A stretch of 64,000 nt of DNA, from NCBI GenBank assembly GCA_008632985.1, contig QPGO01000037.1:62001-126000 (forward strand), written 5' to 3'. The translations under genes and the position numbers were made by a program. This document shows, piece by piece, positions 16,800-41,700 of the stretch (its first letter is position 1; every line of letters begins with the position of its first letter). The DNA comes from Psammoneis japonica (taxonomy: Eukaryota). Under the pieces are notes generated by a model. It saw only the letters and a list, made by a program, of their open reading frames with translations, did no database searches and was not told where the DNA came from.

Positions 16800-19700
16800 T
16801 GTCACACGGAGTCCCACCTAGGGCTGGAACGCGTCTGTTTTGCGATCGCACTCAACCCAAAGTTGAGGAGCAACACCGTCAGTTGTCCAGTTCGTCGGAT
16901 GACAATGGGTCCCTGGTGCAGGTTGCTTCATTGTCGCCGGCGAAGCCGTCAGTTTTCCAGTCATGTCAAGTGGGTCCCCGGTGCAGCTGATGAAAAAGAG
17001 AGAGTTGCCAATCCACCACGATTGTCAGGAGTCAGAATGCTCCTGTGCTTGTGCCTCAACCTCCTGGTCCTGAGAAACATGACAACGTTTGGAGGGAGGG
17101 AGGTCTTACATCGTCGTCCTGATTGTTTGTCGGATCGAGTTCCCGAATTCTGGGTTGACTGCACACCCATCTGTGCAGCGCCGCTCGTTCATCCTGGAGT
17201 TGCACACCAACCCCAAGCTTGCGAGACAGACGTTCTCAGGCTGCCACGACATTTGCCAGCCAAGAGCGTTTGAAAGAGGTTGACTTCAAGAGCAGCGAGA
17301 CAACGTGACCGCAGAAATGACAAGCGAATTCCCCTGGAAGACCTTCTCGGCCCCGCTGAAAATGATGGCAAATCCATGAGTCTAGCTTGTCTCTGGCTTG
17401 CTTGCTGATTTGAGGGTGGGCGGCGGCGTTCCTGTGCTCCCACAGCCGATGCGTTATCCTGACAAGTTGGTGGACCCATCTTCTGACCCATTTGGATCCC
17501 GATTTTCTAGAGCCTTGGAGCCGGAAATGTTCCTGTTGCAGCAGAGCCCACTCCTTTGCCACACAGCCCTCCAGAAGTCTGTCCCAGCCAATGACATGTT
17601 GTGACTCAACCACCTGATGAAGGACCGGGCTTGCGCAAGGGTCGATGCAGACATTGACATTTTGCTGGCTGCGCCAGGCAGTGAGGTGTTCCTGAATGGT
17701 GGTCGCTAAACCAAATGCCGCGTCGTTGCGGTCCACCCAGCGGGTGTGTTTGCGCAAGAGCGACCTCCACTTGTCCGTGGCCTCTGGGCAAGTGGTGATG
17801 TGCGTGGCATCTTCATTATCGCCGTCTCACCGGGGGCATCGCAAATGATCCTGAACCTTCCAGCGTTTCAGCCATTTGCCTGCTCCGCACATTCCCACTG
17901 CGTGTTTGGCCATCCACCGTCGTTTGCCGACACCGAGACTCCTGGCGACAGTCTGAATGACATCCCAATCAATCCTGCGAAAGCCCTTGTCCGTGAAGCA
18001 TCTTTTTTGTTCGATCCAGCATTTCGCCAGCCGTGTGCCGTGAACGTGGTGATGCAGTCGATCAGAAAGCTTTGTCGAGATCTTGTGTCCTCCAACGAAG
18101 ACACCCCACATTTCGTCTTCGATGTCAAACTGTCGTGGCTGCCTTTCCTGGGGATCTGGTCTGGTCTCGTGTTGCCATCAAGCTTTAGCCAGGTTGTCCA
18201 TCTCAATGTTCAGTCTTGCCCATCTGTCGAGTCTTCTGCATCGTTGAGTGTCTTGATGTCCTTTGACCCACCGGAATTTCCACCGCAGCGGGCTCTTGGC
18301 GATTTTAGCCTTGACAGCGCTTAAAATGTCGAAGTCATTGGACTGAGCTGTGACGGGAAGAGTGGGGTCCGACGATTTTTGCAGGGCTTGTTTGCCATCA
18401 CAGGCAATTTCAATTGCTCCTTGATGAACGTCATGATGCAGACAAATGTCTTCAACTGTGCAAACAATGCTGCAGAGACCCGCTGTCTCTGCTCGGCAGG
18501 AATTCACATCACCAGGGTGACCTGGCACAACATTGGCACCCGTCACTTGGTGGGTGTCTCGTTTGCCTTGGACAGTGAATGCCGATGTTGCAAGATCGTC
18601 TTTAGCTGACCCGTCACTGACAGCAATGGCTGCTCCTGATTTGATGGCGTTGGCAACACACAATCCATCGTCGTCGACCGAGACTTTGTCGTTCGCCCAT
18701 TGTCTGGCTGGAGGTCGTTGGCGGAGGCGTTGGAGAAGATTGATTGGGGCTGGGGCGTCTTGACTGAGTCTCTTGCCGGTGGACCCCGAGCGACACATTC
18801 CCCATCTGTCCTCACCTTTGTGGCAAACACGGGTGCGTTGACTGTCGTTGGGCAGTGCAGCCGGTCCAGCCGGGATAAATCTGTGATGATGGTTTCTCAT
18901 TTGCCTGCGACTCGACAACCTGAACGATGTCCATTGGTTGTTCTGACCTCTTTGATGTGGTTGCTGTTCAGATGGAGAGTGGAGCCACTGCCAGCGGGAA
19001 TCATTGTCTCTAGCATCAGGAAGCCAGGCGCCCAAGGGATGGTGCAGTCGCCTTGAACAGACGTTGGCAGCCTGTGCAAAGCAGTGCCTTAGAGCCTTGT
19101 GCCACATCGTCCAATCGGCAGCCTTCGGGCGTTGCTGCGGGGGCCAATTGCACTGGGACCGAAAGAAGACATCCTTCTTTCCATTCCACATGTCACACAG
19201 AATGTCACATCCATTGCCAGTTGAGATGTCAGCAAGTGTCACGACATTCAGGAAGACATGGCAACGATTGAGGGCCTGCAGCTCAGCTCCGACAAAGCCA
19301 TCATCTGCAAATCTTTCCATGAGAAAGGCGTCATTCTTGCGTGAGAGTCTCAGCGACGGTGTGTCTTCTTTGATGCTGATGTCGTGGCTTGAAAAGAATT
19401 TCCAAAGATGTTTGACCCATGATTGGGTGGCTGGGCATCCGAACAATTGGTGGGAACTCGCAAGGAAGGAGCTGCCAATTCCGACTTCCAGCTTGTGTTT
19501 CTCCACAAGTGCTTGGAGAAGTTGACCCGTGATCGTGTCAGCTTTGCCGTGTTTGACAAATGCCTTGACATGTTTCCCACACATGGCAGAAGCGATCGAT
19601 TCAAATCCGAGGCCCTGCAGTCGGACAGGACCGTGCACAACTGCGCAGGGAAAGGACTCACACAAACCCAATCTTGGAAGGCCTTGCTTGAGCAGCGGTG

Positions 19701-19901
19701 CTTCGATGCATTTGCATTCTTTCGATGACAGGGCAAGGGCGAGAAGAGGATGGTCAAGGGCCTCATGGACTCGTTGAGTCAGAGCCAGCCACGCATCAGC
19801 CTTGGAAAGATGACCTGGTCAAGCCCGATCCGCCCAACCTTCAGCATGCTTCCGGAGTTCTTCCACCGCCTTCCTGCAGTTTCCGTCAGGGGCTGGCCAC
19901 A
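16800..19901 (-). mobile_element. 3' part of an Ambal-like non-LTR retrotransposon (post-RT region, RNase H, C-terminal domain, 3' UTR)
   Basis: WPAPDGN right after the junction; RNase H AVSDGS / NSCRAETAG / ACDGKQAL / WVKGHQD / LNIEMDNLAKA; C-terminal IGWDRLLEG..LWEHRN; 3' end approximate. Confidence 0.88.
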
Positions 19902-20457
19902 GCATCAGAGGCCGCAACACAGTGTTGTTCACTTTCCTTTGGAAAATTTGGGACATTTGTTTTGACAATTGTGTGCAAAAATTAGTGATGGTTCATTTGT
20001 TTTTTGACAGTCAATTTACACTCATTGTCGCCATTTTATGTTGGCAATTGTCGCCGTTTTATTTTGCTTTTAAGTTGCCAAAGAATTTCAATGAGCCCTT
20101 TGTTGTTGAACAACGCTTTTTGTTTTGATTAATTTTTCACACATTTGTGGAATCGTCAACTTTGACAGTGCTTTTCAATGGCTTCACCGCAGCCTTGCGT
20201 CACCACAGACAATGGCATTTCTCCCTCGCCCCAGTCGGCCATGCAATTGCCTGGAGGAACACCATCTCATTGTTTCCACCTGCACGCTCCAGTTGTCCAG
20301 TCAACAGGCCCCCACCTGCATTTTGGCACCTTTTCTACATGCGCAGTTCTCTGCCCATTTCACAACAGCACACCCTCTCCCCAAAATGCTTTTGACGAGA
20401 GGGTGTGCTGTTGTGAATCCTGCACATTCTACGTGAATCGGCAACTGACTGTTGGCC

Positions 20458-23400
20458 ATGGCTTCTAACGACTTTACCCCATCTGACGACGAGGTCGACC
20501 CTGACCCTTCTTTCCAAATTACCGAGGACTTAAATTTTGATGAAATGGAACATTTCACCAACGGTTTCGGATTCGAATTGTTCCAACCCAAGCTCAAAAG
20601 CACAATTGCAACGCGTGCCTCGAAAAAGAAGTTTTTGGAGTCGACGAATTGGACCCCCTCTCCAGAATTCCTCGCTCTTCCCTTCCTTTGTCACAAGCCG
20701 AAGTTACGCCATGTTCCTCGTGTTGTCGAAGTCATCCGCACCAACAATGTTGTAAGGAAAACCCTTGGCTATCCCAACATTTGGTCCCACATCATGACTC
20801 GTGGTTGGTCCACCAAGAAATCCCGCCGTGCGAAAGGCGAACATGTCCTGCGATGTAAAAATCTCGAGGAGGCTCTGCATTTCTCCAAAGTGTCCGGAGA
20901 GACAGAAAAAGAACAGCACAACCGTGTGCTTCTTCACCGCAACATCCAGGCGATGGTAGAATTTGTTTGTGCGATCATTGCCGGAGACGACCCAAACGAT
21001 CCTTTATCCGGCAAGCCTTGTTTCCGATTTTTACGGTGCAAAAGTCTCCAAAGTTTGATCAACGATCAAGCCCAAGACCTCCACAGTGCCCATTTTGTCA
21101 CTGACATCGTCGTGCGTTACGTTCAGCACAAGCCCAAGGACATGGACTGTTGGCTCTTGAAGATTTTCCGTCACATCAAAACCCAAAAGGAATGGCGCCT
21201 CTTTGTTGACAGCTTTCTGAGTTACATGCGACACTGACGATCCTGGTGCCCAGGCGGATGAGATCAAGGGGTTCCTTGACGACTCAACCGGTGACACAAA
21301 GAACATGGTGACAATGCAAGGCGATTCCCTTGCACGCCGTGAGGCTTGTGAAGAAAAAATCAATTCCATGTTGAATCACGAATTTGGGAAGCGTTGTCCC
21401 AAGGAGCAAATTGGCATCTGACCTGGGTGCAGCAAGCAGCTCACAATGCTCCATTGCAGAATGCGTGATCAGAGGGCCGACCACTTGGAAGACGACAACA
21501 AACGAATCTACAACTCTAAAACCAAACGCAAAATTAGGAGGACCCGCAAGGATGGCACCTGTTTGTACGATTGTGAGAACCCCCCCCCACCTCCCGCCTT
21601 CTACCTTTCCGCCTGCATCTGTCGTCTCAATGTCTCTTCTCACACCCCATGATTGTTCACGACCCACCAGAGCCTTCCTTGACCGTTCCCAACAAGAAGG
21701 CCAAGCCTGCATCTCGCAATGAACAAGCCCCTCCATCGCTTTCTGGCAATGTTCTGTTGTCCGGGGAGGCACACCGGACTCTCACCACTGACCTTCCGTC
21801 ACTCTCAGAAATTGTGGAAAACCTAAAACCTGCTTCTACCTCCAAAGGTCCTTTGTCCAAACCTCACTCCTCTCCTCCTTCTGTTTCAGCCAATCCTCCC
21901 GCGGTTGCGTCTCCTCCCAGTGACCCTGACGACATGTCGTGGCTGGACCTGTCCACACTCCGTGATCGCTTTGACCCATCCAAGTGTCGACCCGTCACCA
22001 CCGAGGAAGTTTCTTCTCATTTGTCACACCTGCACATCATTGACAAAGCCACCGACACTGATCGGGTGCTTCATCATTCTGCCGCCGACTTTTACCTGGC
22101 GGACAACTTGCGGGAAAACTGGCACACGTTCTCAAACAATGCGCCATCATGTGATTCCGCCACCGCATCTCGTGTTCGAACCGAGTGCCCTCCCAACCTC
22201 GATCACTTCTCCGAGGAACTCTCCGTCGCCCGTCAGGCTAACTCTCTGTACAAGGGGCACTTCGGGTGCCTTCGTGCATGCATTCCCACCCTTCTTCCAT
22301 TTATTTTGTTGAAGGGAGAGTCCGATTTGACACGTGACGGACCGGTTGCAGTTCAAAATGGCGAAGCATGCAGGACAAAGTTCGGTTGTGCTGGGAGAGC
22401 GCATCACCCCAAGACGCCTGGTTCTGCCAAACTGGCCAAACCAAAGGCTGCTTACGGACTTGATGTCTTTGAGTCCGATGATGACTTTGACGCCAATGAG
22501 ACCTCCAAAATCAAGGCGATGGCAGCTGACATCCTTGACTCGATTCAGCTTTGCGAAAATGAGGTAGAGCTGAAAAAACTGAGCAATCCACCGCCATTTA
22601 ACTTTTCACTTCGGTGCGAGGAATGCTCGCAAAAGTTGGGCAACGAAATGGGCTGTCTCTTCTTCAAACGTGAGGACGTTGCCATGCAGGGATTGTGCAT
22701 TTCCCGGGGTCAAGTCTGTGATGGTCACTGTGACAATAAAAACTGCACCTGGCGTCGACACAGGAAGACAGCTGCCGGTTGCTTCTTTGTTGTGGATGCC
22801 TTTGGCAACATCTGGTCCTTCAAGGTTGTCACCAACAGCAGAAGGACCATTGGTGAATGCTGCGACGACCAGTGCGACATGAAGCCTGTGCTCACTCGCA
22901 TGCACCACAATCGAGCTCAGCTTGATTTTGCACTTAAAGACTTGGACTTGCAGCACGATGGTCCCACCCACCCCAATGTGTCGCTTTCCAGCATTGCATT
23001 CAAGCATCTTTCCCTTGACGACAACAGGCCGTGGGACAATGTTCTTGTTGGTGGAGGTGGCGACTCTTCACATGTCGAGGTGCACATGGATCGACTCAAG
23101 TTCCCAACTTTCCCAGTCAGGGACTTCCACTTGTCTGCCCCAGTCACAGTGATCTGCCGTTTCAAGAACATTGTGCACCGATCGGGTCCTGACCCAAAAC
23201 GAGTCATTCGTTTGGCGATCCATGCTGGTCATCCCACCGGATGTCGCCGATTTTGCTGCGTGGGGGACAAGCATCTTCCTGACCTTTGTTGCGAAGGTGC
23301 TGACCCGTTTGTCAACTTTGCTGATTGCTTGCAGAACACATTTGGGGTGCCATGCGGTGACCCACAGGTGGGTGGGATCAGCCCCACCAATTTGACGTAC

Positions 23401-24477
23401 GAGAAATTTTGCGATGCATTTCTAGACCCTTGTTGCGTCGGAACCGCGAATGACCTAATTGATGCAATGGTGGAAGAAATCTGTGCTGCACTTCTCTGGA
23501 TGAACAACAACGTTGACACCAACGAGTTCTGTCCCAACTTAATGGAACAATGGTGCAAGGCAGCGTGTGATGCTTGGGCAGACCGGGGAGCAGATTTCAG
23601 TGAGATTCGTCTCATGTTGGTGCTGCAATGTCTGGTGCTGGCAGGTGTCACAGTGAAAGACCATCCAAGACTCAACAACATCATCTGTCCTGTCTTCAAT
23701 TCGGGAGCTGCCGCACAACTGGGGCATGTTCAACCGGAAGAAAGGCCGCTCATGCACCAAAGGATGTCATCCGAAACAGGAACCGAAGAGCACGGTTGGA
23801 ACGGAACTGAGCACAAACTTTGTGAGAATTCAGACAATCGCTGCACCTGTGTTTTTGATTGTGTTTTCCAAGGACCCTGTTCAGGACAAGACCTGTTTGC
23901 CTTCTCTCCCTCTGGGCAGCATCTCTGCAAGCCACATGGGCCAACCGAGTGTGAAATTTTGGAGTGTGTTGACGACGACCCCAACCTTTTCCAATCACAA
24001 GACAATGCTGAATCGTGCACATTTGTGTGTGAATCAGCCATGCAATCAGACGGTGCCAGTGTTTTCTCTGCTGTTGATGGACTGCCCGCGGACAATGAAC
24101 TTAGCTCATTGTCATCGGAGGAGTCTAGACTCGCCGCAAACAATGAACTTGGCTCATTGTCTTCGGAGGATTGTCGATTTGACGTGGAGAAAGAACCAAG
24201 TTCATTGGATTCGGAGGAGTCTCGACTCGCCGCAGACAATGAACTCAGCTCATTGTCTTTGGAGGAGTCTGTGTTGTCGGAGGACTGCTCGTGTCCTGAT
24301 TCTGACTGCCGCGTTCCAATTGTCACGGTAGATTCTGTTGTCCTTCAGTTGCAGGATCAAGAATCCGATGAAGATGATGCAAGTGACGCAACCGCGTGCG
24401 ATCGACCCGAGCCACCGGTCCTTTTACAAGCACAAGATTTTGACATGGACAAACATGTGAATGCCATTTTTGAGTGA
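20458..24477 (+). pseudogene. Large transposon cargo gene (frameshifted; main 942 aa ORF 21649-24477), possible DNA base-modification enzyme
   Basis: Adjacent ORFs 20452-21237, 21446-21652 and 21649-24477 linkable by frameshifts and a TGA; HCDNKN at 22726-22743; SGAAAQLG..EHKLCE ending 23826; acidic repeat tail; Tyr nearly absent. Confidence 0.55.
24090..24270 (+). repeat. In-frame tandem repeat encoding DNELSSLSSEESRLAA-like units (x4)
   Basis: Repeated AATGAACT..GCTCATTGTC..CGGAGGAGTCT.GACTCGCCGCA. Confidence 0.85.
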
Positions 24478-25424
24478 GTCCATCAACAGCCGAAGAACTG
24501 CTGCAATTGTTTGGTGTCATGTTTTTCACAAATCTTAATCCGCAACATGACTCCTCCTGTGCTTTTGTTTCACATTGTCATGTCATCCCCAGACAAGACG
24601 GAGGTGCAAATGTCCTGTGGCTTTGCATGACGAGGCCCGTCATGGCCGGAAACCTGACATTAGATGAGACATGTTCGGACCGTGGCATGGAGGCCATCCG
24701 ATCCACTCAGCAAAGAAGAGATGAGGCAAGGTGTCAAGTCGTTCAGGATCTCTACACGAACTCAAATGTTCGTGCATGCACTGTGTCCCTGCAGGATGGC
24801 AGCCCCGCTTGTCACTTGAATTGCAACACATCCACCAAGAATTTTGCCCAAAGGGTCAAGACGCGGTTTGGAACAGTGATTGATTTTAAGAAAAGTGGCT
24901 TTGTTCAGATCTGCATGGACTGCTGCTGGATGCAAAAAGGGGAGTGGCTGCAGTCGACACTCGGAAATTGCTTCTTTGGCGAAAACCCAAGGGATGTGAT
25001 GGAAACGTTGTTTCATCCAAAGCTCCAGAGGTGCCGCGTCATAATCCCGTGCACCATTTGGTCACTGACCCAAACCGCGCGCAATTTGGACAACATTTTG
25101 GAATGCGCACTGGTGCAGGCCATGACACAGGACATGGCATGTGAAACAGTGACGCTCTGCCAGGCTTCCCAGGAGATTGTGGAGGAGCACCGTGTGGATT
25201 GGCTGGGAAAATCATCTGACCAGGAAGCATTGCATTTGGGAGTCACGGAACAGGAAATTTGGGAAACGCCACCACATGAAGAAGCCAACTCAGTCCCAGA
25301 GTTCCTGCGAGAGTGTGGAAATTACAACCCGAAGGAACCGTTCCCGTTCCTGTCCTTCGAGAGGAGAATTCCCGATTTCAGGGATGAGTTAAGGAAATGG
25401 CCCAGGAGTTGTTTGCTGTGCTAG
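24474..25424 (+). pseudogene. Unknown transposon cargo ORF (316 aa), Tyr-depleted
   Basis: Long open frame abutting the 942 aa ORF; no recognised family. Confidence 0.4.
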
Positions 25425-25538
25425 TTCCCAGTCGGATTTGTGAGCAGATTGTCAAAGCAGGTGAGTGAACGTTGTCACTGTTGTCCTTGTCGTCCCAATC
25501 AAGTTTTCTGCTGCTGTTGTCGGATGCTCACATGCTTT

Positions 25539-28500
25539 TCACCTGCTTTTGTGAGACAGCTCTCCCCATGCATTTCTGCGGTCTTGAACTGCCCAAACAT
25601 GCTTTGTCCTGTCATGTGTCTCAGCAATGCCGGGTTGCTCCTCACACACCAACAATTTGTCGCCAACAGCATCGATGGGCACCAAGAAAAGCTTGGGTGA
25701 GCACACTGTTTGTTCAGTGGAGGACAAGTTGTTGTTCTTCACTTGGTCCAATTGCCAGCGACTAACCAGGTCGGTGTGTTGCATTCGTTCAACCATGGCA
25801 CGCTTGTCAGGCTGGCACGTGCAAGGGTGAACGACCGCATGCAAGTCACCGTCGCTTTCCCTTTGGAAGAAACAGCGAAGTCTTGACGGGAAGCACAATT
25901 CCCCCCTGGTTGTGCCAAATTTAACATTTGCCCAGTCGTGAGCCGGTCCTTCGCTGTTGCAGTCTGGGTGTGCGCGGCAAGTGTCTTTCCCATTCTTGTG
26001 GGGGAATTCGGTTTTGCAAACAAGGTTGACGGTGAGGTTGCCTCCTGCTCCAACGCATTCCCTCCACTTCTTTTGAAAGAAATGGAGCAGGACCGGGTGA
26101 ACCTGACATTGTTTTTGCTTTCCGTGCCAGAGAAAGCTTGCTGCATTGTTTGTCGCACTGTGGGTGATGGCAAAGGTGCTGCCACCCAGTGTGTGACCAT
26201 CGTCACCACATGCAACGTCCTTTCGTCCAACTCTCGATGTGATCCATGGGTTGGCCGACAACGCACGGTGCACCGTCATTTGGTCTTGCATGCACGACGC
26301 AACCTGACCCAGGAAGATGTCAAAGCTGCGTTGTTGTGCTGTGGCAGAGGGCAATTTGAAAAAATCCTTGAGCAAAGATTCTCCAAGAACAGCGTCAAAG
26401 TTCATGGCATGACGGAAACAACATAGAAAGATTGGAAGGTGAAGAAGCTCGTGAAGTTTTTGCAGCTTCCACCCAGCCCCTTCGTGTCCAGGGGAGCAAT
26501 GTACGATGCGAGACACCAGCAGCCGAATTTTCTTTGTGATTTTGGTCAGGTCAGTTGTGTCGGTCGGTGGGTCGCCAAGTTGATGCCAAGCATGGAAGGC
26601 AAGCAGGTCTTCCAGCAACTGGACGCATTGCCCAACACTGCAACTGAGGGGCTTTCTCTTTTTTTTTTCCTTTTCTGTTGATTGTGGCTGTTGCCTTCAT
26701 CCTCGGACTCGTCCGGTTGTTGTTCCACATGATCGTCTTCATCCGTTTTGTACGGATCATCTGCTCTGTTGTTGGAATGATGATCGTTGCCATTGTCGCA
26801 CTCTTCCGGCATGTGACAGCGATTGATTCGGAACCCAGGTGTCCCATGCCCTGACGGCAATGGAGGATTGTCTTGGTCTTCCTGGAGAAAACAAGATTCG
26901 CAGACATCTCTGCCTTCCTTTGTCAGCAGCAACAAATGAAAAACAAAGGCCATCCCCGCCCAATGATGTGAGTTGAGGCAGGTGAGTGATGTTGCCCCGC
27001 CCTTGAAATTGGTTCGTAAGAAAGAATTGCACGTGGATCGGTGATTGCCAAACATTTTTTCCACCAATCTGTCGACCTCGCTTCTCACTGAGTTTGTCAT
27101 GCTGTCGACAAAAACACCAACCTCCCTTTTTAAAGTTCCGTTTTCAAAAAGGTGCATCATGTCGCTTGCCGTGGAAAGGGTTGCTCCGAACGGCTGTTCT
27201 CCAAAATCTGCATTGAGCAAGCTGTTGGTGGGCACATTGTGCTGCTTCATGCAATGAAGCTGCTGCAGCCAGTGGTTCCTTTCTTGCTCGTCAAGACTGA
27301 GATCATTTGCGTGGTTCTGGACTGACAAAATGTCGCCAGCCCTGACTGGTTCGCACTCCTTCCAAGGGTCGTCAAGCTCATTGTATCCGGTCACGCAAAA
27401 CCTGGAACAACGTTGGTGACAGTTCTTGGCACCATGCCCACCCCACAAGGCAGTCACCACTCTTCGCATCTCCGTTGATTGGGGTTGTTGTTGGAATGAC
27501 ATGAAGGAAACGCATCTCATCACCGCGTCAAACGCAGCAGCAAAAGCCACCGTTTTCCATTGTGTCCAGCAGAGGCTGGAGCATTGTTGCCAACACCTTG
27601 TGACAAAACCCGGATGCTTTGGCCCTTCTCCGACTTTCGAGCGTTAGATTGCTGTTTGGCGGCGGAGGAGGACATTTTTTCTAGGTCGGGAATGTGACCA
27701 AGGACACGCCATTTTGCTCTGTCATGCCATTGGTTGCAGGCAACATGAGCCGACGTAACTGTGACGGGTTCTCTGCAGGAAGACGACATGGAGGCTGTCT
27801 TCCCAGTCTTGTCAACGTAAATTGTCAAACATTCGAGGAACTCTTTAAGAGGATCCAAGACCCTGGCTGCGCACGTGCTTCTGCACCACTCTCCTGCCAA
27901 AACACACTTGTCGTGCTTTCCCTTTGAGACATGCATTCCGCATGGATCGGCAGTGTCGGCGAGATCACTTGGGTTGGCCCATGTGCAAGCATCCAGCATG
28001 AACGATTCCCACACATCTTTGAAATTCCATCGCGGAACTCTTGCTGTTGTCTCACCGCATTCCCCATTGACGCTTTCTAGGTTGACTGGAATCATCTCAC
28101 ATTCCGGACCTGCAAAAGATTCACGTGGGTTCTCCATCAGTTTGGTCCGGCGAGGGATTTGCGTTCCAAGATGGAAGGCACTGCCACAGTGTCTTTCGAT
28201 GAACTCGGCGATCTTGTCGCACAGGTGAAGCGGTGCTCTGCAGTCATCTAAGAGCTTGCACAGCTCTACACAAGCACCGTTGAGGTTGCCAAGAGATGGC
28301 ATGTGCGCAAAGGCATCTTCGGCTGGGCTGCGGCACACCTTGCCCAATCGGCTGTCTTCACTCCGCGAATCATCTTCGTCTGAGCTGTTTGATTTGTCAG
28401 GATTTGTGGCTTCGGAGCCCTCCATTGTGACATCTGGCAGCGTGTCAAATGAGTCATCTGGTGACAAGCTGGCTTCGGAAGACAAGTCCAGGGACATGTC

Positions 28501-30432: not shown

Positions 30433-30870
30433 AGAAAACGATTTGGCACCAAAAAGGATGGATGTGCTCAGGCCCCAACAGCAAACCGGAATGACGTTAA
30501 AGCAGGTGAGGGGTTTGTTCATTGTGGTAAAAACAACTTTCACAGGTGCACGTTTCACAATGATGTTTTGAACAAAATGCTTTTGCAAGCAATTTACACT
30601 GTGGAAGTGGATTTCGAAATTGCAGCAAAAGAGAGGTTTGAACTGGAATTTGCAATGATTCAAAATTTTCACAAGATCACAAGGAGTGGCAAAATGGACA
30701 AATTGTGTGCACATTAAAAGATTTGGTCAATTCTCAATTATGTTGCATTTGAGAAAAAGGAATCATTGATGGCAACTGTGAGATTTTTGGCATTAAAGAG
30801 AGGTTTGAAAATTTTCCAACGGCGAAAACAACTGGGACACAAGGCATGGAGCCACCCACAATTGGCGACA

Positions 30871-32096
30871 ATGGCAAGGAAGAAGAAGAAAGGAACTGCG
30901 GGGGTGGCTGGAGATCAACCAACAAGCCCAAGGCCAGCCGCAGCGTTGGTGCGGGTGGGAGCCACTGGGGATCACCAGTCTACAAAGAGAGAGGTAGAAG
31001 AGGTGGTGCGGAAGGAACTTTTCCCAAAGGCAAAATTCCTTGTCAAGGCGGACATGGCAAGCAGTGGCAAAGTGTCGCGGCTCATCAGGAAAAAGACAGC
31101 CGGAGGAAATTACAGCAAGCGAGACTGGGCGGGAGCATGGGAAGACTGGGCAAAGAAGTGCGTCATGTGTGCAATTAACGTGAAAAGGAGCACGGTCACT
31201 CAGGCGATCAAGAACAATGCAACGGCTGGTGGGTGTTTTGTGGTGCACGGCATGTTGAGTGCAGTTGTGCTTGACACAACTGCACCTTTGTTTGTTGAAG
31301 TCGTGTTGACAGAGAATGAAGCAGAGGAGATGCACAGTCAGAAGCCGGCAGCAAAGGGCAGAGGTGGGAAGAAGAGCAAGAAGAGGAAGAAGAATGATCG
31401 CACGGAAGAGGAAGAGCCGTTCCTGGCGACTTGGGGGGAGGAGACTGTGACAACAATTGTGGAGGACAAGCGCAAGAACAAGGAAGCACATGCTTGGTTC
31501 TATGAAAACATCCTGAAATTCACAAAGAGCGCCACCACATGGAGAAGGAAGGTGGAGTCGGGTGAGACAAAGGCAACCGGTCTGGCTGCAGTGAGCGACA
31601 AGGCTCTGGCGCTGTTGATGTTGGAAAACCACTGGAAGAGTTGGGGAGCACAAGGCACGTCATGACAAGACTGTTGCAGCAGGGGGGGGTTCAGACGAAG
31701 AAGATGAGGAAGAGTCGGAACCAACACCCAAGCACACGGACCCGTCAAGGCAACGAGACTCGTGGAAAGATGCAGGGATCAAGCGATTCAACAAACTGCT
31801 TGCGGCAGCAAAAGAAAGACAGGTTGAGTGAGGAGGGCATGCAGTTTGACACATGGTGCAGCAAAAGCAAGAAAAGGAAGAGTGACGAAAGAGGCAAGGG
31901 ATCGAAAAGAAAGAAAAAGCAGGTGGAGGAGGCAAGAACACAGGCAACGACAGAGCTTTCAAGTGACGATGAGGAGAAGGAGGAAGAGGTGACGGACGAG
32001 AACAGAGGAGACGAGGACAGCGACGAAGGGGAGGAGGACAGTGATGCGGAAAGCGATGTGAATGTAGATGCAGATGGTGAGCGAGCTGTGGCATGA
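30871..32096 (+). pseudogene. Transposon accessory protein (helical, acidic C-terminal tail)
   Basis: VVRKELFPKAKF..INVKRSTVTQAIK..VSDKALALLMLENHWKSW, then basic and acidic tail over frameshifts. Confidence 0.55.
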
Positions 32097-32562
32097 AAAG
32101 GCAGCGGAGGCTTTTGTCAGTGTGATGATGGAAAGAGGACAAGCAATGTAGCAGGTTTCAATGTTGACAGTCACAAGGTTTTAATGAAGTGTCAAAGGGA
32201 TCATTGTTTTGTGATCTAACCTTTCGTTTGACAACCAGTGCATGCAATGGAACCAGTGCATGCAACAGAAGGTTCTCTTGACCAATGCAACGCAATGATT
32301 GGCATCAAATTGTTGTTGACCAAAACGTTGTGAACATTGCTTTCAAAAGGTAAAAAGTGACGGAATTCTGACAGTCAAGGGAGGGGTCCCACAGGCAAAG
32401 GAGGGGTCCCATGGTGAAAAATGTAACACTGTGATGTGCAATAAAAAATCACGTTCTACACAACTCACTCAATGTGAAACTGTTGCATTTGTGCCCCACA
32501 ACAGCACCAAAAATTACCCACAAGAAGGGTGGTCAGGATCACCACATTTCGCGCTCTGATGC

Positions 32563-35500
32563 CACTCCCAGAGTTTCCTTGGTGATGGAGGGTGAAAGCC
32601 ATTCGATCGGATGTCCAGTTCCTTCTGCATCCTCTACGCACATCTGTGGGTTGTCCTGGTCATCAGGATCACCATCTTCGTGAACGCACTCCCATCTGCC
32701 GTTGGACCATTTGAATTCGATTGGATGCCACCAACATTCATCCGGACGAGTGTCGCCTCCCGCAACTCTCATGCCGCCTGCAAAGTGGTCCAGTCCTCTC
32801 TGGGCTTCTTGGACAACTTCCCACCCCGGTTGTGGCGGATCTGTGGCTGTGTGAATGATGTCACTGTCATCGACGAATGCAAACCCCACTGTTCAAAGTT
32901 CCTCGTTCGAGATGGCCAGACGGAAGGCTGCCCCGTGACCTGCAGTCCTCATCATTTCAAGAACGGGAGCACTGACTGCTGCCCAAATCTGGGGGGCATT
33001 GCCGTCACCTTGACCGAGTCCTTGTGGAGGCTTGCAATCCGATTCAAAGTTGTCGGGGTCAAATTCGATTGCGAAGAGGTCGCCACCAAACGATTGCTCG
33101 GATCGACCACAAATTGTTTTTACAGTGTGCTCCATCTGCTGAAGAGTGGTGAATTTGCAGACAATTGGTGGTTCTGGAGCTCCTTTGCTTCACATTGCCA
33201 GTGAGGCACACGAGTGGACGACAAGGTCGTAGCACGAACGTAAGTCCACAGCGGTGTCCACAGCGTTGATTCTGTCCACTCGAATGAGGTCAAAAATCAG
33301 TTGTTTGTTCAGAGCTTGTTCTTCCGCTGAGTGACCCTTCCTGCTGCCGCACTGCTCCCGGGCAATCCATTGCCTGGGTTCGGCTTTCCTCATCATTTGT
33401 CGTCCAAGGATCTTGTTGTTGTTGTTTGCATCCACTTCGAAGCACAGAACAGGCCGCAGAGCATCCACGTGTTCTTGTCCTGTTTTCTTTGGGATCAGAA
33501 GGTCCACACCTTGTTGCCATCACTTTGGAGAGTGGCCTGAGACATGAGGAAAGTTTGCCATGGAAGCATCAAGTTGGGTGAGGGTGTCGTCAAAACGAGC
33601 AGCTTTGAAATGGGCGGTGTGCAACCTCGAAGGACCGGCGCAGATTTTTTCCTTCACTCTCTTCCAAGACTCCGTGTGTTCTTCTGTGGAGATCCACGGC
33701 TTTGCATCCACAGAGCAGTCAGGCGGGTGCCGCAGATGTAGAAGGTGTTCTCGTGCACATTGAGTTGCACCCGGTGGGAATTCATGCCATCTAGAATGGC
33801 GTCTGCGTGGGGCCCAACTCCGAGAAATTGGACGTTGTTGATGAGCGGCTCCTGCATGAGTGCGGTCCGGTGAGTTTGATGTGGTCTTAACTTGCAGTCT
33901 TGGAGGGCAAGAGTTTCCATTTCCTCTTTGTCTGTGACCTCTTGATTGGAGCTGTCTGCTTGTTTCTTGAGGAGACGTGTGAGTGGAGATCAGAGAGGTT
34001 TGCCGGAGATCCGATTGACTCTGCGATTCTGCTCCCCACTCTCTTCGCGGTTGATGAGCACCCGCAGTTGTGTTTTGGCGTTGGAGTTGTTGGCTTTGGC
34101 CAGCTGTTCCGCTCACTTCTCTAGAAACTTGCATCAATGATCAGGAGCATCTTTGGCGATTGCTCGACACTCTTTGTGGCGTGGTGACAAACCTGCCTCC
34201 AACTGTTCGAGAGTGAGGGTGTGCGCATCGAAGTCTTTTGCTTTCCTTTCCAGACGACGCATTTTCCCAGAGCTGATTGTGAGGCGTTTCCGTCGGCGAA
34301 TCAGGGCTTGACACAATTCGATTTGCTTGGACGCTCGTTTGAGCTTGGAGGACCAGGATTTGCCTCCCATGCGAAGCTTTCTGCATTTTTTGTCGGCGAG
34401 CCACACACCTTGAACTCACAATTCGTCAATTCTTTCCCATTCATCAGTGAGGTTGGGATGCGGGGGGGCAAGTGGCTTGCTTTTCGTTTCGAATGCTCCT
34501 GTTGGGAAGATTGTGTGTCAGTGCATGACGTTTACGAATTTTGTTGAATCTGCCAACAGTGACTGGATCGTCAAGTTTGAGTCTCCGAGTAGGGTGCCTT
34601 TTGAGTTCAGGGGGAAGCGCACCAAAAGCGGTCTGAAACAAGATGTCGATCCAAGCCATTTGGTGGTTGGATCCCGTGATTCCATCTCCAAAAGGCAAGA
34701 ACCCGCCCTGTTCGATTGTTGCACCTGCAGTGGCCCAGATGCCATCAATTGGAAGGGAGCCAGGGTTCCGTGTCGCCGGAAGTGAGTCCTCTCCGCAGCG
34801 CTCTGTCAGCAAATTTCTGAGTTGCATGGCTGAGAAGGTGTCTTTGATCTCGGTGGACCGAATGTCTTTGTTCACGTCGCCTGATGGAATGATTTGATCT
34901 CCGTCCGCAAGCCACTTGATGACCTCCTCGGTCAGGTCCTCGATCCAGGCTGCTCGGGGACATCTGTCATCATCGTGTTCGTTGAGATGCCTTTCATGCT
35001 GGGAGCAAACTGTCCTGGCGCCTTTGCGACTTGCACAGGGCCGGTGCGCTGCAACAATGCGAAGAGTCATGCCTGCTTTGCCACGGAATCGGAGCCAAGA
35101 CCACCTTCCCAAACTGGACGAATCTGTGCCTCTTGCGATCACTCTGTGTCCCGCTTGATCGATTGCCATTGGCATCGTTCTGCCTGGCTGGCAGAAAGAG
35201 GAATGTAAGTCGTGAACATTGCAGGTGGCCGAGATGGACGGAGGATGTTCCCAGTGCCCTCGGAATCTTTCCCTTGGTCGCTTGGAATGTGGGACGGTTT
35301 TCCAACACCTTCCAGTTTCATTCGTGCACAATGCATCGATGCATTTTTCTTGAACTGTGCGGTGCACACTTTGGTTTTTTTGATCTTTGTCGTCCAAGGG
35401 AAGGCCATTGATGTTCTGAAATGTGATCTGCAGGGCAGTCTCAGGTTTTTCATTGGTGCAAGCAGCACCATGTGTCTTGTTGTTTGATGGTTGTGTGGCA

Positions 35501-35580
35501 GACTTGTTGCTTGTGCTCTCTTGTTTGACATCGAGTTTTCTTTTTCTATTTCCATTGCGGCAGCCGCCTCTCTTTGTCAA
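32563..35580 (-). pseudogene. LINE ORF2 N-half: APE endonuclease and reverse transcriptase
   Basis: APE ITFQNINGL, NET, GRWSW, IVAAHRPC, SGDVN, PIDGIW, GSNH; RT LRPVLCFEVDAN, EQCGSRKG, DLRSCYD, GLGQGDGNAPQIW, FAFVDDSD. Confidence 0.88.
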
Positions 35581-38500
35581 ATGACCACATGGCCACCCAC
35601 CGTGATCCTTCTCTTCATGCGCTGCTCGGACTCACTGGCTTGGTCCCGTGCCAAGCCGGCTTGAACGATCTGAGTGTCGCCCTGGAAGGGATCCGACTCC
35701 CCTCCCTGCATTGCTGCAGTGGCTTCACTGGAGACGCTTTGCGAGGTCTCCATGTTATCGTCATGTCCGTTGCTCTGTTCACTGAGAACAGATCCTGTGT
35801 CGACAGATTGGGCGATCTTCTCCTTTCCTTTGAGGAGGGCAGATTTGACCAGCCCAACAATGTCTGCTAGAGTCATGTTTTTTGTGTCGACGTTGTCAGG
35901 GAGATGGGCTGCCAGATCCTGAATCTCGCCAGTGATGTTGGCCATTTTCTGTTTCGTGGTCTCCGTGGTTCCCGAGGTCTCATTAGATTGGTGTGATCCA
36001 GAAGATTTCTCATCTGTTGGTGGTTGCTTGGTCGGATTGACATGAGCATTTTTTCCTTTCCTGGCTTCTCGAGCCGAGGCTGGTGTGTCTTCGTCAAGGC
36101 CGCCTCATCCAAGCATTGCTGGGTCGACAGGTTCTGGAGCAGGAGGAGTGTTTTCAATTGGTGAGTTGTCTTGCATCACCTCAACTTGGACGTCTTCCAG
36201 ATTCTCAAAGTCATGGTCATCATTGTCTGGCTCCTCCACCAAAGCTTGGGTGCGTGGGTGAGTGGTTGCATGCTTTTCTTCGTCCCATCCAGCTCCTTCC
36301 ATGTCCTGCACATGGGAGGCAGCAAAGAACCTTTCAACACCGCGTCTGTGTCGATGCCGCAGGTGCGGAAGCAGGGAGTGAGCCATGGGAAGGGCCTCGG
36401 ACTCCACCTGTGGATGACATGTCACTGCAGCGGTTCCTCCTTTGTGCTGAGGAAGCACTCCTGCCTCCATGAACTGAGTGGATTTTGGTTTGTTTGGTCT
36501 TTTGATCATTGCGATCATCTGCCAAAGAGTGAGTTTCGTAGCTGGATCAGGTGCGTGGAGAGCTTGAACATTGTGGAGAGGAGCAATTTTTGCGTGTTTC
36601 AGGTGGGCTTGCTGCCGGATGACTGCCGTGTCCACAAGATCAGTCTCGGTTGGGCTGATGCAAAAGGAGCATTCGGGAACAAGCTTGGCGATGGTTCCGA
36701 GCGGTTTGTTGGGGTTCGATTTGGAGAACATTGCTTGGAGAGGACCTCCAGCGTTGTCTGCGTCTCGTTCGTCCATGATGATGTGCAGAGCTTTGGGTTG
36801 TGGGTGTGCAGCCATTGCGTCTGATGGTTTAGAGACTTTCCAAGCACGAAGCTCAACTGGCACCTTAAGACGAGAGCCAATTTCCTTTTCGAGCTGAGTC
36901 GGGTCGAGATCGGCGTGAGCCCACATGAGGAAAAAGCCTCCTTTGGTTCTTTCCGCCTTTTGAAGGACCTTGGGTTTGAGGAAGACTTTGAATGTGTCGT
37001 TGAGTGCGTTTTTAAGGATCTCCTGATTCTCATTGGGGTGTTGGTCCATTCCGAGTCGGAGATCGATCCAATTGTCTTTCTCCGGATTGAGACGAACACA
37101 TTGGAGATGCTGGCGCATCTGTCCGAATGGGAGCTTGGAGAACTGCTTCCGAAAGGTTCCGCCCTTGAGAGCAATGGCCTTGTCGCCGCAGTCTCCCGAC
37201 CACGTCGCCACTGCGACATTGTTGCCGGTGAGATTGCACGCTCTGTCCATGACCTCACCAAAAAATTTTCCAATTGAGACTTCTGGATTTTCATCCTTTG
37301 GGAGATTGGATTGTGCAGGGAGTTTGAGAGTGTGGCGATGCCAACATTTTCGAACAGTTTTGTTTGATTTCGAATTGATGGGGTCGAAGAAGGCCGATGC
37401 TTTGATGACTTCATTGGGTTCTTCCACCGGTGCCGTCTCCATTGACCGTGATTCATTGTGGAGGTCATTGTTTTCTGGTCCTTTCTTGACTCGTTTGTTG
37501 GGTTTCTGAGTTGTTTTGGTTTTCCCTTTGTTGTCGGGAGTGATTTGCTTGGTCGGTTGTCCTGAGCCGGCCTCATTCGCAGAAGTGGAGATGGCCTTGG
37601 CCGTTTTCGTGGCTGCCGCATCAGGGGCTCAAAGGGTGTTTTTTTTGTTCTCATTGGTCGTCTGAGTTTGTTTCTGGTTGGGTTTGGTGCCTTCCGAAGT
37701 GACCTTGGATTGTGCCGCCTTGAGGCTTGACAACAGTGTGGTCGATTTCTGTTTGTTTTCAGCTGGTTTTTTCCTGGTCGAGAGCGTTGTTCCTGTGAGT
37801 TGACGAGAAGTGTTTGAGGGGATCGTGGTTTTTGGATCGGTTGTTTTCAGCATGATTTCTTCATCGGAGCTGGAGGTCTGGTTGTCAGACAGTCCTGTGG
37901 TTTTGAATGGCTTGGGAACCGGCGGTGCAACACCAAGAACCACCACGTTGTCATCAGAGTCCTGGGATGGATTGGAGTGACAAAGGAACTCTCCGTCCTG
38001 TGGGGTTGTGCCACTGCTGACCGAGCTAGAGTCAGAGGACGAGGAGGAGGACGAGGAGGAGGAGGAGGAATTTGTTCCTTCGTTCGAAAAGGAGGAAACA
38101 CTCTCGCTGTCCTTGATCTTGGCCTGGAGTGTGGCGTGCCTGTGTGCTTCCTTTTTTTCAATGCTTGGTGACACGCGCCTTTTGTTGCTCTGATTGGAGA
38201 GATCATCTTGAAGGTCTTCGTCAACAGGAGTGTTCTTAATGAAATTGTTGACAAAATCCTCTTCAGAGTCGAGCGTCGAGTCGACTAAAGAGTCTTCGTC
38301 GCCGCCGCTTTGGAGAGGTTCATGCCTGTTTTTGTTGTGTTGATTGGTCGAACAAGGTGAGTCAGTGGGAGCTGAGATCTCTTTGTTGGAATCGTTCATC
38401 GATGCTTCCGGTTTCTCATTTTTTGCAGTGTTCTTGGGGGTCTTGCAGTTGCTGTTGTCTTCTTCGAAATCCATCTGTTTCTGACCGATTTCAGCCGTTG

Positions 38501-38666
38501 CGCCAGGAGAACCGTCAATCTCAAGAAATTTTTTGATCCCTTGCTGTTTCGGATGCATCCTTTTTTGCTTGCGCTTGTCGGGAGAACTCACATCGGTTTG
38601 AGAGGTTACTTTCTTGCTGGGTGAGGAGGCACCCTTGCGTTTGGTGCCGTTTTGCTTGTTGGCCAT
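35577..38666 (-). pseudogene. LINE ORF1 (long, low-complexity N-terminus), frameshifted
   Basis: Consecutive ORFs 37629-38690, 36105-37442 and 35577-35945; stop overlaps the start of the ORF2 frame. Confidence 0.65.
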
Positions 38667-38749
38667 GGTTGATTTTCGTTGCTGGTTCACGTGGGTGCTG
38701 GCACTGAGTTTGTGTGGACTTTCCGGGTCACTTTAGATGCTGATGCGCG

Positions 38750-41700
38750 CTGCCAACATGAGCAGAGCAAGCAATGGGTGCTCAGCATCCAACAAGGAGG
38801 TTAGAACATCACAAATCAAGCAAAAAAAAACATCAATGAGTCTGGCTGCCAATGTGCATGCCAAAACAGGAATCCAAGACTTGGCATTGGCTCCTTGTCA
38901 TTTGTGGGACTCCTTGTTCCCTCCCCAGCCATCGGAAAACCAGCACTGTGCAAAAGATCCAAAAGCTTGCTTCAACCACAGTGTTGCCCACCAACAATGT
39001 GTGGTCCTTGTGGAAAATCCACAGAGGGCCATGGACATCTTGGAATGGCCACTGCCAAAAACGAAAAGCAGTCCTGTTGTTTTCACAATTCACCAGGGTC
39101 ACATGCACTCATTTGTGAAAGCCCTGATTGTCAATCTGTGGCTTCATGTCTCCACAGTGCAGCAAGTCCTGTTTGCTGTTGCCAGACAGCAATTTGCAAA
39201 GTTTTGGTGTGAGAACAGAATGGTGCTTTTTGCTTTGGGCAATTTAAAGTGTTCTTGTTTTGACAGCTTCTGCTGCTGATTGCATTGTTGTCATTTAGAA
39301 TTCCTCCCACGAGTGGGTTGAAATCTTGATGGCACATGTCAACATTTTGTCTTCCCAGCTTTCTTCCTGTTTTTCTTCTGAAATGGGCTCCTGCCTTGTG
39401 CTTGGTTTTCCATGATTCATGCATCATTTTCTGCATGGTCAGCACTGGCAAAACAGTGGGGCAAGATTTGGCAAAAGATTCAAATTCTTTCTGGAGATCA
39501 CTTTGTTTGCTGCTGTCCCTGAAGTGCTTTTGGTTTTGTCAAACCACCTGTTGGAAGTGCAGAATGAACAAATGCCATCAATCCTGCCCACCTCTGACCC
39601 CCATGCACTGGTCAAGGCATTTGTGGTGGCAAGAGCTGCACCCTTTTGAGTGATGAGGATGCAAAAGTGGTGTCTTGCAACAATCATTTCCCCTTTTCCT
39701 TTGAAGCCTTGTCCAAGCAAGTGAACAAGTGATGCTTTCAAAGCAAAGGTTGGTTCATTGTTCCCTCACAGAACTTTGCAGTGACCCAACAATGGATGCA
39801 CAGTCTTGGCACAGCAATTTGGTGCTGACAGTCCCTTTGCAGCATCATTTGCAATCACTCCAGTTTTACAACAGACAACCCATGCACCTCTGGATGATGC
39901 CACCTGATGGCAATGCATCCAAAAATGGCTCTGTCCACATCTTTTTGTGGCTTCTCTTTCCCTCACCTGATGATCGCTCCAAAAGGGCCAGGGAAAGCTC
40001 ACAATTTTTCTGTTGTGACAGAAGAGTGCAAGTGCAAGTTGTTTGGCTTCATTCCACAATGCAGTGCAACAGATTGCCAAAAAGGCATGTTGGCTGCATC
40101 AGCCAAATCAACACCAATTGCTGTTCACTCCAGCAGAACAACAATGGAGATGTGGTGCCCCGCCAAAATGAACTCTGCACCCTCATCACAAACTGCAAAG
40201 AGGACAGCTCTGGCTGTTGGCTTGCACTCTTGAGCTGCTTTCAAGACTCTGCCACAATGACCTGATCCATCTGTCAAGGCTTTTGCTCTCTAAATTTGAT
40301 GCACTGGCTGACAAATGAGACAAAGAAGTCACAGATTTCTGGGTTGTGGACTGCCTTGCAGCCAAAAGAAGCAGTCTGCACCTTCAGAACCACCATGATG
40401 CACTGGTTTGCCAAATCAAACTCCACATCACCATGTGGAGATGGGGAAAGCTCTTGTCAACAATGCACTGTGACAGATCTGAGTTCTTGAGAGCTTGCCC
40501 AGCTTTGGACACACCCACAGATCCAAGTCACCACATTTGTTGTGAACTCTTCCTGATGCTGTGTCTGTGACTTGGCCTCATTTTTAAACTGCTGTGGCCA
40601 CTGCACAACAGAAATGGCACTCTTGATGAGAAAAGGCATCTCTTGAACAAAAGAGCAATGTAGAAAGAGAAAATGCATGCAAGCCAAACAGGTGCAAGAA
40701 ATGTGCAAAGACTCAACAAACGCACAGCATGAGTGGCAACACATGTGGATGGTTGATGGTGGTGATGCAACAGAAGCAACATCATCAGTGCAAGCCTTCA
40801 ACAAGAATTTTTGCCACAACCCAAGCATGCAAAGCTGAACATTCTCAAGCTTGTCTCACATCTCATGATGAAATGCACCCCAGATTCTGTTGGATTGCCC
40901 AAATTTTTGCCTCAGAGACAACCACATTTTTGAAATGTGCAAAACACCATTGTCTGCACAATTTTGTGTGTCACAATGTTTTAAGATGTGAGCCAGAAAA
41001 CACTCCCAAAACCTGTTCTGCATGGCAACCATGCCTGTCAGGGAGCATCAACCATGACATCAGGCAGCCCCAACCCTCCATGTGCATGTGCCTCTGCTGC
41101 AGTGCATTGGCCCAGCACGGTGGATGGTCACAGCCAGCATGTGTGCAGGGCCCCTGTGTGTGAGTGCCACCAAGGGCAACAGATGGAGGGGCCATTGGCG
41201 GTGCAGATGGCCATCACATTTGATGGCTCATGCCATGTTTGGGCCTGTGGCAAGGTGCGCAGTGTGCAGACCATGGAGACTCTTTTTTCTCCATTTTGCT
41301 GCCAAAACACTGTGTTGCACAAACTTGCTCGTTGTTTGTGACATGTTTTTTCCAGTGTGACTTTTCATGTGCAATTCATGACAAATTGTCTTTGCACAAA
41401 GCTGAGTGCATTGTTTTTCAACATTCCATGCTGGCAACCCTGATTTTTCATGAGTTGAGCATGTCTGAGCACACACTTGAGCTTGAATGAGTGGTTGAAC
41501 ACATTTGAGCACAACAAACCAAACACTGTTGTAAAGCAGGATGTCAGTTGCTGGCAGATCTGGCAGTCAGCAGAGTGCAGCAGCCTCATGGCAGCCAAGC
41601 ATGAAAACCACCAAGTCATCAGCGCCAGAAGATTTGTTCAAACTGCTGCGCAAAGATGAAACAGGCTGTTTTGCACTGCTCAGCAAGGGTCAAACAATGG

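Follow-up and report, generated by a model that had tools for sequence, protein, structure and literature searches.

I analysed a stretch of 64,000 nucleotides from the genome of the diatom Psammoneis japonica (contig QPGO01000037.1, positions 62,001 to 126,000; the assembly comprises 91 Mb in 597 contigs), which is called the window below. It contains a long interspersed nuclear element (LINE) with a DNA transposon nested inside it, and older relics lie on both sides. It was found that silenced stretches follow an L-shaped path, from intact DNA (stage 0) to DNA that has lost the dinucleotide TA (TpA, stage 1) and then to DNA that has lost both TA and CG (CpG, stage 2). It is quite likely that silenced DNA is subject to two independent mutation processes of the host, a fast one at TA followed by a slow one at CG. 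The first would be an A:T to G:C mutator, restricted to repeat domains, which targets the A of TpA in either strand, site by site. Each hit would give TG or CA and remove the target on both strands, so that CG would almost never be produced. Such a mutator would destroy Tyr codons (making them Cys or His codons) as well as TAA and TAG stops, and dead copies would thereby keep long open reading frames (ORFs). The second process would be a slower decay of CpG to TpG or CpA in the same domains, for which 5-methylcytosine (5mC) from the diatom CG methylation system is proposed, and it would create TGA stops from CGA. The L shape of the path would arise because the first process begins at about 27 times the speed of the second and later saturates. 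Both substitution classes, their direction, their independence from copy to copy, their order, their sequence context, and the correlation of CG loss with background divergence are directly supported, while the enzyme, 5mC, and chromatin targeting are what I infer.

The two stages are visible in the base-step composition of the window, given here as observed/expected ratios (o/e). In genic DNA (1-9400), TpA and CpG o/e are 0.52 and 1.01. The LINE and the nested element, which the initial annotation had described as lacking TA but rich in CG, indeed have a TpA o/e of 0.07-0.13 and a CpG o/e of about 0.7 (0.08 and 0.71 in the LINE piece 16836-19901, 0.07 and 0.72 in the LINE piece 32563-38752, and 0.13 and 0.70 in the nested element). 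The flanking relics, said to lack both, have a TpA o/e of 0.03-0.05 and a CpG o/e of 0.06-0.14 (0.03 and 0.13 in 12480-16297, 0.05 and 0.14 in 38753-47100, and 0.05 and 0.06 in the block 59800-64000). TpA depletion is restricted to foreign or silent DNA (0.03-0.13 in elements versus 0.5 in genic DNA), and TG and CA are elevated in the TA-poor segments (o/e 1.36-1.9). The CpG content had been noted to switch near 38750, at the 5' end of the LINE. The maximum-likelihood CG change point between 36000 and 42000 is 38750, and the LINE ends at 38752; the 2 kb to the left of this end hold 99 CG and the 2 kb to the right hold 6 (binomial p = 8e-23), and the TA counts are 8 and 7. The elements on which the argument rests are as follows.

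9434-12477, no strand assigned: young element of family Y with terminal inverted repeats (TIRs), stage 0, TA and CG o/e 0.69 and 0.89, with CCACGA on both sides.
12480-16297, no strand assigned: old relic, stage 2, TA and CG both erased, with a copy of family S at 13885-15295.
16288-16297, plus strand: left target-site duplication of the LINE, CCAACATGAG, repeated at 38753-38762.
16298-38752, minus strand: LINE, a non-LTR (long terminal repeat) element of the APE-endonuclease type, stage 1, in the pieces 16298-16445, 16836-19901, and 32563-38752.
16446-16835, no strand assigned: miniature inverted-repeat transposable element (MITE) with 30-bp TIRs (I10), stage 0, TA o/e 0.95 and CG o/e 1.60, with empty sites in other LINE copies.
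19902-32562, no strand assigned: nested Plavaka-like DNA transposon with short TIRs, stage 1, with empty sites in the LINE copies on C33 and C234.
38753-38762, plus strand: right target-site duplication of the LINE, CCAACATGAG, where the CpG switch lies.
38753-47090, no strand assigned: old relic, stage 2, TA and CG o/e 0.05 and 0.14, with a copy of family R at 39886-41028.

The direction of the TA loss was read from family Y, in which 20 of 107 genome matches were taken as loci and the window element served as the reference for a second copy, L067. Over 3017 aligned bases, L067 has TA changed to CA 72 times, to TG 66 times, and to CG once, with TA kept at 22 sites; that is, 138 of 160 TA were converted to TG or CA. 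Changes of CG to TG or CA number 9 of 129 (120 CG are kept), and the remainder consists of 10 other transitions and 2 transversions. The private changes elsewhere include 6 A to G outside TA and 2 C to T outside CpG. Two further copies of family Y keep TA at 156 of 160 and at 151 of 161 sites. Expressed as hazards, the losses in L067 are 1.98 for TA (95% confidence interval 1.61-2.43) and 0.072 for CG (0.033-0.137), a ratio of about 27. This ratio, together with the almost complete mutual exclusion of TA and CG in alignment columns, bears out the suggestion that TA conversion is fast and distinct from a slower CG loss.

The alignment columns tell the same for the nested element. In 14 close copies, the column pairs hold the set TA/TG/CA 48 times, CG/TG/CA 121 times, and TG/CA 127 times, and the two losses thus converge on TG and CA, as had been proposed. 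TA and CG occur in the same column in 1 of 82 TA-containing pairs of these copies and in 1 of 136 in three LINE copies. Copies choose between TG and CA with a concordance of about 0.44-0.72, against 0.59 expected if the choices were independent. The window LINE contains 1 Tyr in 2929 codons. Where five database homologues have Tyr, it is kept at 3 of 96 aligned positions and replaced by Cys or His at 33, whereas Phe of the same homologues is identical at 55 of 134. Along the coding path inferred for the LINE, 13 stops were found, every one of them TGA; at 10 of these positions one or more of three other copies read CGA, which agrees with the earlier attribution of scattered TGA stops to CGA. 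The six LINE relatives that an alignment-based metagenome scan gave have a TA o/e of 0.60-0.82, none being TA-depleted, and a scan with the LINE endonuclease ORF confirmed 0 of 52 candidate stretches; breadth over diatoms is thus not established. One of the relatives, L153, has a CG o/e of 0.54 and a TA o/e of 0.82, so that CpG has decayed in this other organism while TpA is not lost. TA loss is a real process with a direction, and it acts after insertion. Long contigs of the public run X1 match TA-less stretches of the window (14267-14682, 14653-14944, and 18879-19161) with 0 differences. This speaks against an artefact of the assembly, although X1 could itself be the source sample. Another run, X2, which is not on record as RNA, gives no cover on the relic, the LINE, or the nested element; this has no bearing on expression. 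An all-or-none switch of TA per copy was considered and is ruled out by intermediates, such as family R copies with TA kept at 0.06-0.41, a MITE copy that lost 6 of 29 TA, and the family Y copy L066, which lost 7 of 161.

The order of the two losses was assessed in copies of different ages and in unselected DNA. In the MITE copy L017, 6 of 29 TA and 2 of 30 CG were lost by transition. A young Copia-type LTR element lies in the LINE copy on C234 (L010:8591-10000 plus L011:1-5695); its TA o/e is 0.56, surrounded by LINE DNA at 0.19-0.30, and the 6 mismatches between its LTRs comprise 4 of the TA type, 1 of the CG type, and 1 transversion. This insert has an intact frame of 1926 codons with 46 Tyr, and its LTRs are 97.5% identical. 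Across three families, TA retention is lower than CG retention in 53 of 55 copies, and the 2 exceptions are at the floor for both. A census was made of 1-kb tiles from 38 unselected 10-kb stretches (379 tiles; 1 of 380 was skipped for N), and its TA distribution is bimodal. The 141 TA-low tiles divide into 45 with high, 33 with middle, and 63 with low CG. Of 194 TA-normal tiles, 0 are CG-low and 4 are CG-middle; the other 44 are TA-intermediate.

Not only transposons are concerned. The following features of the window lie to the right of the second relic.

48500-50500, minus strand: ankyrin/RING host gene, present in duplicate, whose copy here is erased; at its edge there is a gradient in which TA goes before CG.
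55285-56110, no strand assigned: small TA-less block, CG partly lost, with a second genome match for its first part only.
58420-64000, no strand assigned: block without TA; some CG remains as far as about 59750, and CG is erased from there on.

It was found that 48039-52288 of the window is duplicated at C50:392936-397572 (L146/L147) with about 80-87% identity, and an extra piece of the C50 duplication matches 55000-55266. TA and most of the CG are gone from the window copy at 48500-50500, where its C50 counterpart is intact; at 48000-48300 and 50750-52290 the C50 copy is the erased one and the window copy the intact one. Redundant host genes are thus also hit, and it appears that selection keeps one working copy of each. 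This reciprocal erasure is compatible with a homology trigger or with silencing of redundant copies; family Y copies of 99% identity are still intact. The block 55285-56110 is mostly without a second genome match (its partner may have been lost), whereas 48500-50500 has its partner.

Can the two losses serve as a clock? Background divergence was defined as private changes at conserved columns outside TA and CG, with A to G excluded; left unscored were L061, a nested copy without a close subfamily, and the nested copies L049, L052, and L053, which do not cover 20350-23100 in full. CG retention falls with background divergence in three families (rho = -0.65 in the nested family, n = 26, p = 4e-4; -0.55 in family R, n = 17; -0.89 in family S, n = 12), and a tree-based version of the correlation gives rho = -0.71. 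TA retention saturates early and shows rho = -0.21 (p = 0.31) in the nested family and -0.10 in family R. Thus, the comparison suggested earlier, of TpA and CpG against divergence at other sites, separates the two losses: in the nested family they do not scale together with age, and CG-rich copies are not as diverged as CG-poor ones (background 0.0017, n = 21, versus 0.0087, n = 5; p = 7e-4). The ratio of CG hazard to background is 175 in young copies and 134 in old ones. The scores also match the order of nesting. The relics keep CG at 0.00-0.04 (12480-16297: TA 0.00 of 75 sites, CG 0.04 of 52, private background 0.039; 38753-47090: TA 0.02 of 56, CG 0.00 of 29, background 0.064), the LINE at 0.73 (CG 198/272, TA 27/129, background 0.0037), and the nested element at 0.85 (TA 0.24, background 1/810), and the MITE is intact.

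Several observations limit this clock. In family S, which spans young to very old copies, TA retention tracks divergence too (rho = -0.74). Each copy has few background changes (0-11 in about 800 columns), and the copies share ancestry, while the divergence in family R is partly subfamily structure. In L067, the first 7 of 7 TA, which adjoin unique DNA, are kept, and conversion is found toward the TA-less flank; the gene copy at 48500-50500 keeps 22 of 25 of its partner's CG at the edge and 7 of 49 inside. In neither does the clock equal insertion age. Such exposure gradients inside one insertion mean that it measures time in the silenced state at a local dose. The idea of a relative clock for insertions therefore holds in that it ranks elements by nesting order, but what is dated is local exposure to silencing, and insertions are only roughly ordered. 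The clock starts at silencing; copies in the earliest stage are ranked by their TA, and those in the later stage by their CG.

The anatomy of the elements supports their relative order. The LINE is flanked by a 10-bp target-site duplication and was thus inserted into the relic. Its colinear copies on C33, C234, and C128 lack both inserts, the MITE and the nested element. The left limit first given to the LINE has to be moved, since the LINE in fact reaches 16298 and carries the 390-bp MITE as an insertion. The start of the nested element lies at 19902 and not at 20450. The lead from the Atlas is Exo_endo_phos for the LINE protein and PF18759 for the nested element; PF18759 is present on 1 of 3 homologues of the latter. 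One Atlas hit of the LINE protein carries the label Bacillariophyta. A 2-kb part of the 12.7-kb nested element has 50 genome matches, 30 of which were taken as loci. The excess of TA reported for 20450-21600 does exist (17 TA in 1151 bp, o/e 0.23, p = 0.008 versus the remainder of the element) but is nothing unusual, as an element-wide scan gives p = 0.37 for at least 17. The region was rejected as a distinct feature, for retention at sites of TA origin over 13 copies is flat (0.19-0.25 in four bins). A 48-bp tandem repeat of 4 copies lies at 24039-24266 within the long plus-strand ORF of the nested element. The summed X1 depth over the MITE is very high, and a second MITE copy is found at the right end of the nested-element copy on C62. 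In family Y, the inverted repeats are I3, I5, and I8, genome copies exist at 99, 97, 94, and 86% identity, and the window element carries a 186-bp internal repeat. Within it (9979-10469), X2 has joints that skip 115-118 bases, two of them with GT..AG ends, which are absent from X1 and carry the alleles of the TA-intact copy L066; they look like spliced transcripts of the 3-kb TIR element, though X2 is not on record as RNA. The genes of the window are eukaryotic and intron-poor and include those for a chromate transporter, trehalose-phosphate synthase, Cu/Zn superoxide dismutase, and E2, among others. At 8781-8839, 4 A/T to G/C differences within 60 bp occur at about half depth in X1 and are fixed in X2; none is in TA context, and they probably represent an allele.

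What could be the chemistry of the TA step? When each conversion in L067 is read as A to G on its strand, TAC (52/90) and TAT (48/97) exceed TAG (21/62) and TAA (17/71). The nested family repeats this order (626/1253, 564/1140, 278/820, and 268/1225), with a tail outside TA of 0.004-0.010 at VAY and 0-0.003 at VAR, where transversions stand at 0.0014. All 6 private A to G changes of L067 outside TA are at VAY. Among the TA left in relics, 38 of 52 are YTAR, which is TAR on both strands, versus 96 of 589 in genic DNA. According to the accessible part of one report, adenine base editors (ABEs) derived from TadA act highest at TAY and lowest at MAR, with TAT, TAC, CAT, GAC, and GAT as promoted motifs (PMC10879117). 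The order TAY > TAR >> VAY >> VAR matches that of ABEs and thus favours a DNA adenine deaminase of the TadA/ADAT2 fold. To judge from this context, I lean towards deamination of DNA adenine to hypoxanthine by such a candidate enzyme. TadA-like and ADAT2-like proteins are encoded in the genome; L089 best matches ADAT2 structures; it contains HAE, a PCIM motif that an intron appears to interrupt, and, further downstream, GCRNDRFGG.

The hits seem to be spread over time. Adjacent TA-TA events show no strand runs (z = -0.05, n = 1361), so sites would be hit singly over many divisions. Single strand-processive bursts of the kind seen in repeat-induced point mutation (RIP) were rejected, as the lag-1 autocorrelation of TG/CA is 0.025 (permutation sd 0.031, 79 columns). 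In two relic copies, background C to T should have restored about 16 and 20 TA, but 1 and 4 are present, and the TA process thus appears to continue on old DNA. RNA editing of the ADAR type, which is marked by an RNA intermediate, strand bias, and a 3' G preference, was also rejected; DNA transposons, MITEs, and duplicates of host genes are hit symmetrically, and TAG is weak. Two PF02137 (ADAT1/ADAR-like) loci exist at C40:112674-113392 and C79:344558-345390. A 3.3-kb dCMP-deaminase locus is found twice, L084 on C41 and L085 on C317, with 99.2% identity and normal TA, and is a haplotig or a very recent duplicate.

Some points speak against an adenine deaminase of this fold. ABEs are engineered and Cas9-guided, and their motif comes from human cells. 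ADAT2 and TadA are ordinary tRNA-editing housekeeping genes whose presence does not discriminate. The strand runs of L067 are borderline (60 versus 69.9 expected, p = 0.05), with p = 0.83 in L068. Moreover, the sequence is blind to which base of the pair was hit, and the same data can be read in the mirror as RTA > YTA >> RTB. A modified T in RTA (like 5-hydroxymethyluracil or 5-formyluracil, or another) could then pair with G and give T to C with no adenine deaminase at all, and modified thymine occurs in repeats of some protists. This explanation is unlikely, if the strongest of the rivals, since the full context order fits a known adenine deaminase fold; a genome search gave no Tet_JBP match, a weak point in that the control was also silent.

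The CG step differs from the TA step in its preferences. In the nested family it is symmetric, with 305 TG and 340 CA of 3071 cells, and its flank preference is 5' A>T>G>C, unlike that of the TA step (3' Y of the A). According to the available text of one study, CG methylation in diatoms forms islands over transposable elements and requires DNMT5 (PMC9998398). Given present knowledge of diatoms, 5mC deamination is the most probable basis of the CG step. The genome has 27 PF00145 matches; DNMT5 accessory domains were found in neither of two weak ones examined, and DNMT5 is thus not confirmed. Four PF00145 matches (L139, L140, L141, and L145, on C301 and C297) lie in TA-erased, CG-retaining DNA with a TA o/e of 0.07-0.11, which suggests that these are element-borne or foreign methyltransferase genes being erased. 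As in methylated transposable elements generally, the decay is symmetric from CG to TG or CA, limited to repeats, scales with divergence, and makes TGA from CGA; what differs is that it is the second, slower step here and stands about 90-fold above C to T outside CpG.

This excess is one of three observations that sit uneasily with two independent processes. CpG decay amounts to 0.12 per C, whereas non-CpG C to T is 13/9860; in mammals the excess is about tenfold. Adjacent TA-CG events show a weak coupling in the same direction (z = 2.1, n = 762, one of three tests), and TA and CG retention correlate in 17 young nested copies (rho = 0.70). All three could mean shared machinery, beyond shared exposure, and CpG decay may also be assisted by an enzyme. 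One methylation-linked complex (for example, DNMT4/RID-like, or DNMT5 with a partner) might then cause both transitions in the same domains, CG less efficiently, and diatom DNMT4 indeed groups with RID in the part of the study available (PMC9998398). Such a complex is improbable. The chemistries are opposite (A:T to G:C versus C:G to T:A) and the flank preferences different, and the correlation is expected from shared exposure time. In 1 of the 6 metagenome LINE loci, CG has decayed (0.54) with TA at 0.82. TpA hypermutation in the Rhizarian Bigelowiella natans, as far as the accessible preprint text goes, comes with almost no GC to AT in the same regions (bioRxiv 10.64898/2026.01.13.699255).

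Even less probable is that the TA step comes from error-prone synthesis during repair of methylated repeats, by a polymerase like pol eta (WA to WG). Pol eta favours A to G at TA, and a weak AA to AG tail is present (AAC 12/1188, AAT 8/1285). But AA is not above CA or GA (CAC 14/1381, GAT 6/882), AAA (3/2263) and AAG (1/1886) are at background, transversions amount to 0.0014, and strand-coordinated tracts are missing. Hardly credible is TA scarcity as an inherited composition, as selection (codon use or avoidance of TA target sites), or as a base-calling artefact: genic DNA is also mildly TA-poor (0.5), but near-identical copies differ at 138 of 160 TA, their TG/CA choices are independent, Tyr codons are destroyed, the six metagenome relatives have a TA o/e of 0.60-0.82, and X1 contigs are exact over TA-less DNA.

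The preferred reading, two independent processes with TA fast and CG slow, has consequences beyond the window. All transposon classes examined are affected, together with duplicated host genes. The reading explains why long Tyr-free ORFs of dead diatom elements escape Pfam, in which 0 of 14 element ORFs searched had a match. Identity-based ages of transposable elements in such genomes are inflated many-fold. The TAY fingerprint leads to a short list of candidate enzymes. In its full form, which I put forward tentatively, diatoms would have an undescribed pathway of genome defence, in which a natural deaminase of the TadA/ADAT2 fold would be steered to silenced chromatin and chronically rewrite TpA in transposons and redundant genes, ahead of 5mC decay and separately from it; the pathway would be shared with B. 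natans, as an old 'adenine RIP' across the stramenopile-alveolate-Rhizaria (SAR) group. If this is true, it amounts to an adenine base editor of natural origin, and silencing events in these genomes could be dated by TA and CG as a pair. No report of TpA hypermutation in diatoms and no two-stage clock was found in print, in a search that left subscription literature mostly outside. New here are the TAY fingerprint, the finding that duplicated genes are erased reciprocally, and the separation of the two steps, with their order in time and their rates relative to each other.

Among known systems, fungal RIP is like the process in P. japonica in being restricted to repeats, in consisting of transitions only, in killing copies after insertion, and in hitting duplicated host genes. 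It consists of C to T mostly at CpA and creates TpA, whereas the process in P. japonica removes TpA and shows no strand-coordinated tracts. RIP also responds to homology between duplicated sequences, takes place before meiosis, and depends on RID/DNMT4. CA to TA numbers 5 of 6335 over NCA contexts, and the RIP signature of C to T at CpA with a gain of TpA is therefore absent.

The closest system is TpA hypermutation of integrated viral DNA in B. natans, described for two viral inserts (bioRxiv 10.64898/2026.01.13.699255; all statements on it refer to the accessible part of the preprint). There, too, TpA changes to TpG or CpA on both strands, in foreign or silent DNA, and at a very high local rate; TA-depleted reverse transcriptase and DDE sequences occur genome-wide, and ADAT2 was put forward as a candidate. 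The mutation is ongoing in vegetative lines, is active in some lines only, and affects single-copy inserts, for which homology is not required. The terms 'diatom' and 'CpG' were not found in that text, nor was a trinucleotide context or a two-stage clock. The restriction to TpA transitions recurs in L067 (138 of 160 TA versus 6 other A to G and 2 non-CpG C to T), and the features given for ADAT2 (HxE, PCxxC, and Asn) are present in L089. The figures for B. natans (211 changes, 6169 TpA, 3132 generations) give about 1e-5 per TpA per generation, and by rough arithmetic a hazard of 2 would take about 2e5 generations. With a mutation rate of 4.77e-10 for Phaeodactylum tricornutum, as found in the available part of the source (PMC6604790), about 0.3 background changes are predicted for L067 over this time versus 2 seen, so that the rate in P. 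japonica may be of the same order or several-fold slower. Residual TpA is 3.3% of steps in B. natans, while near-complete erasure is found in 141 of 379 tiles of P. japonica, where LINEs, DNA transposons, MITEs, and duplicated host genes are hit and CpG decay follows. A repeat-directed A:T to G:C mutator thus has one published precedent, the Rhizarian viral inserts, and P. japonica is the second SAR lineage, at genome scale.

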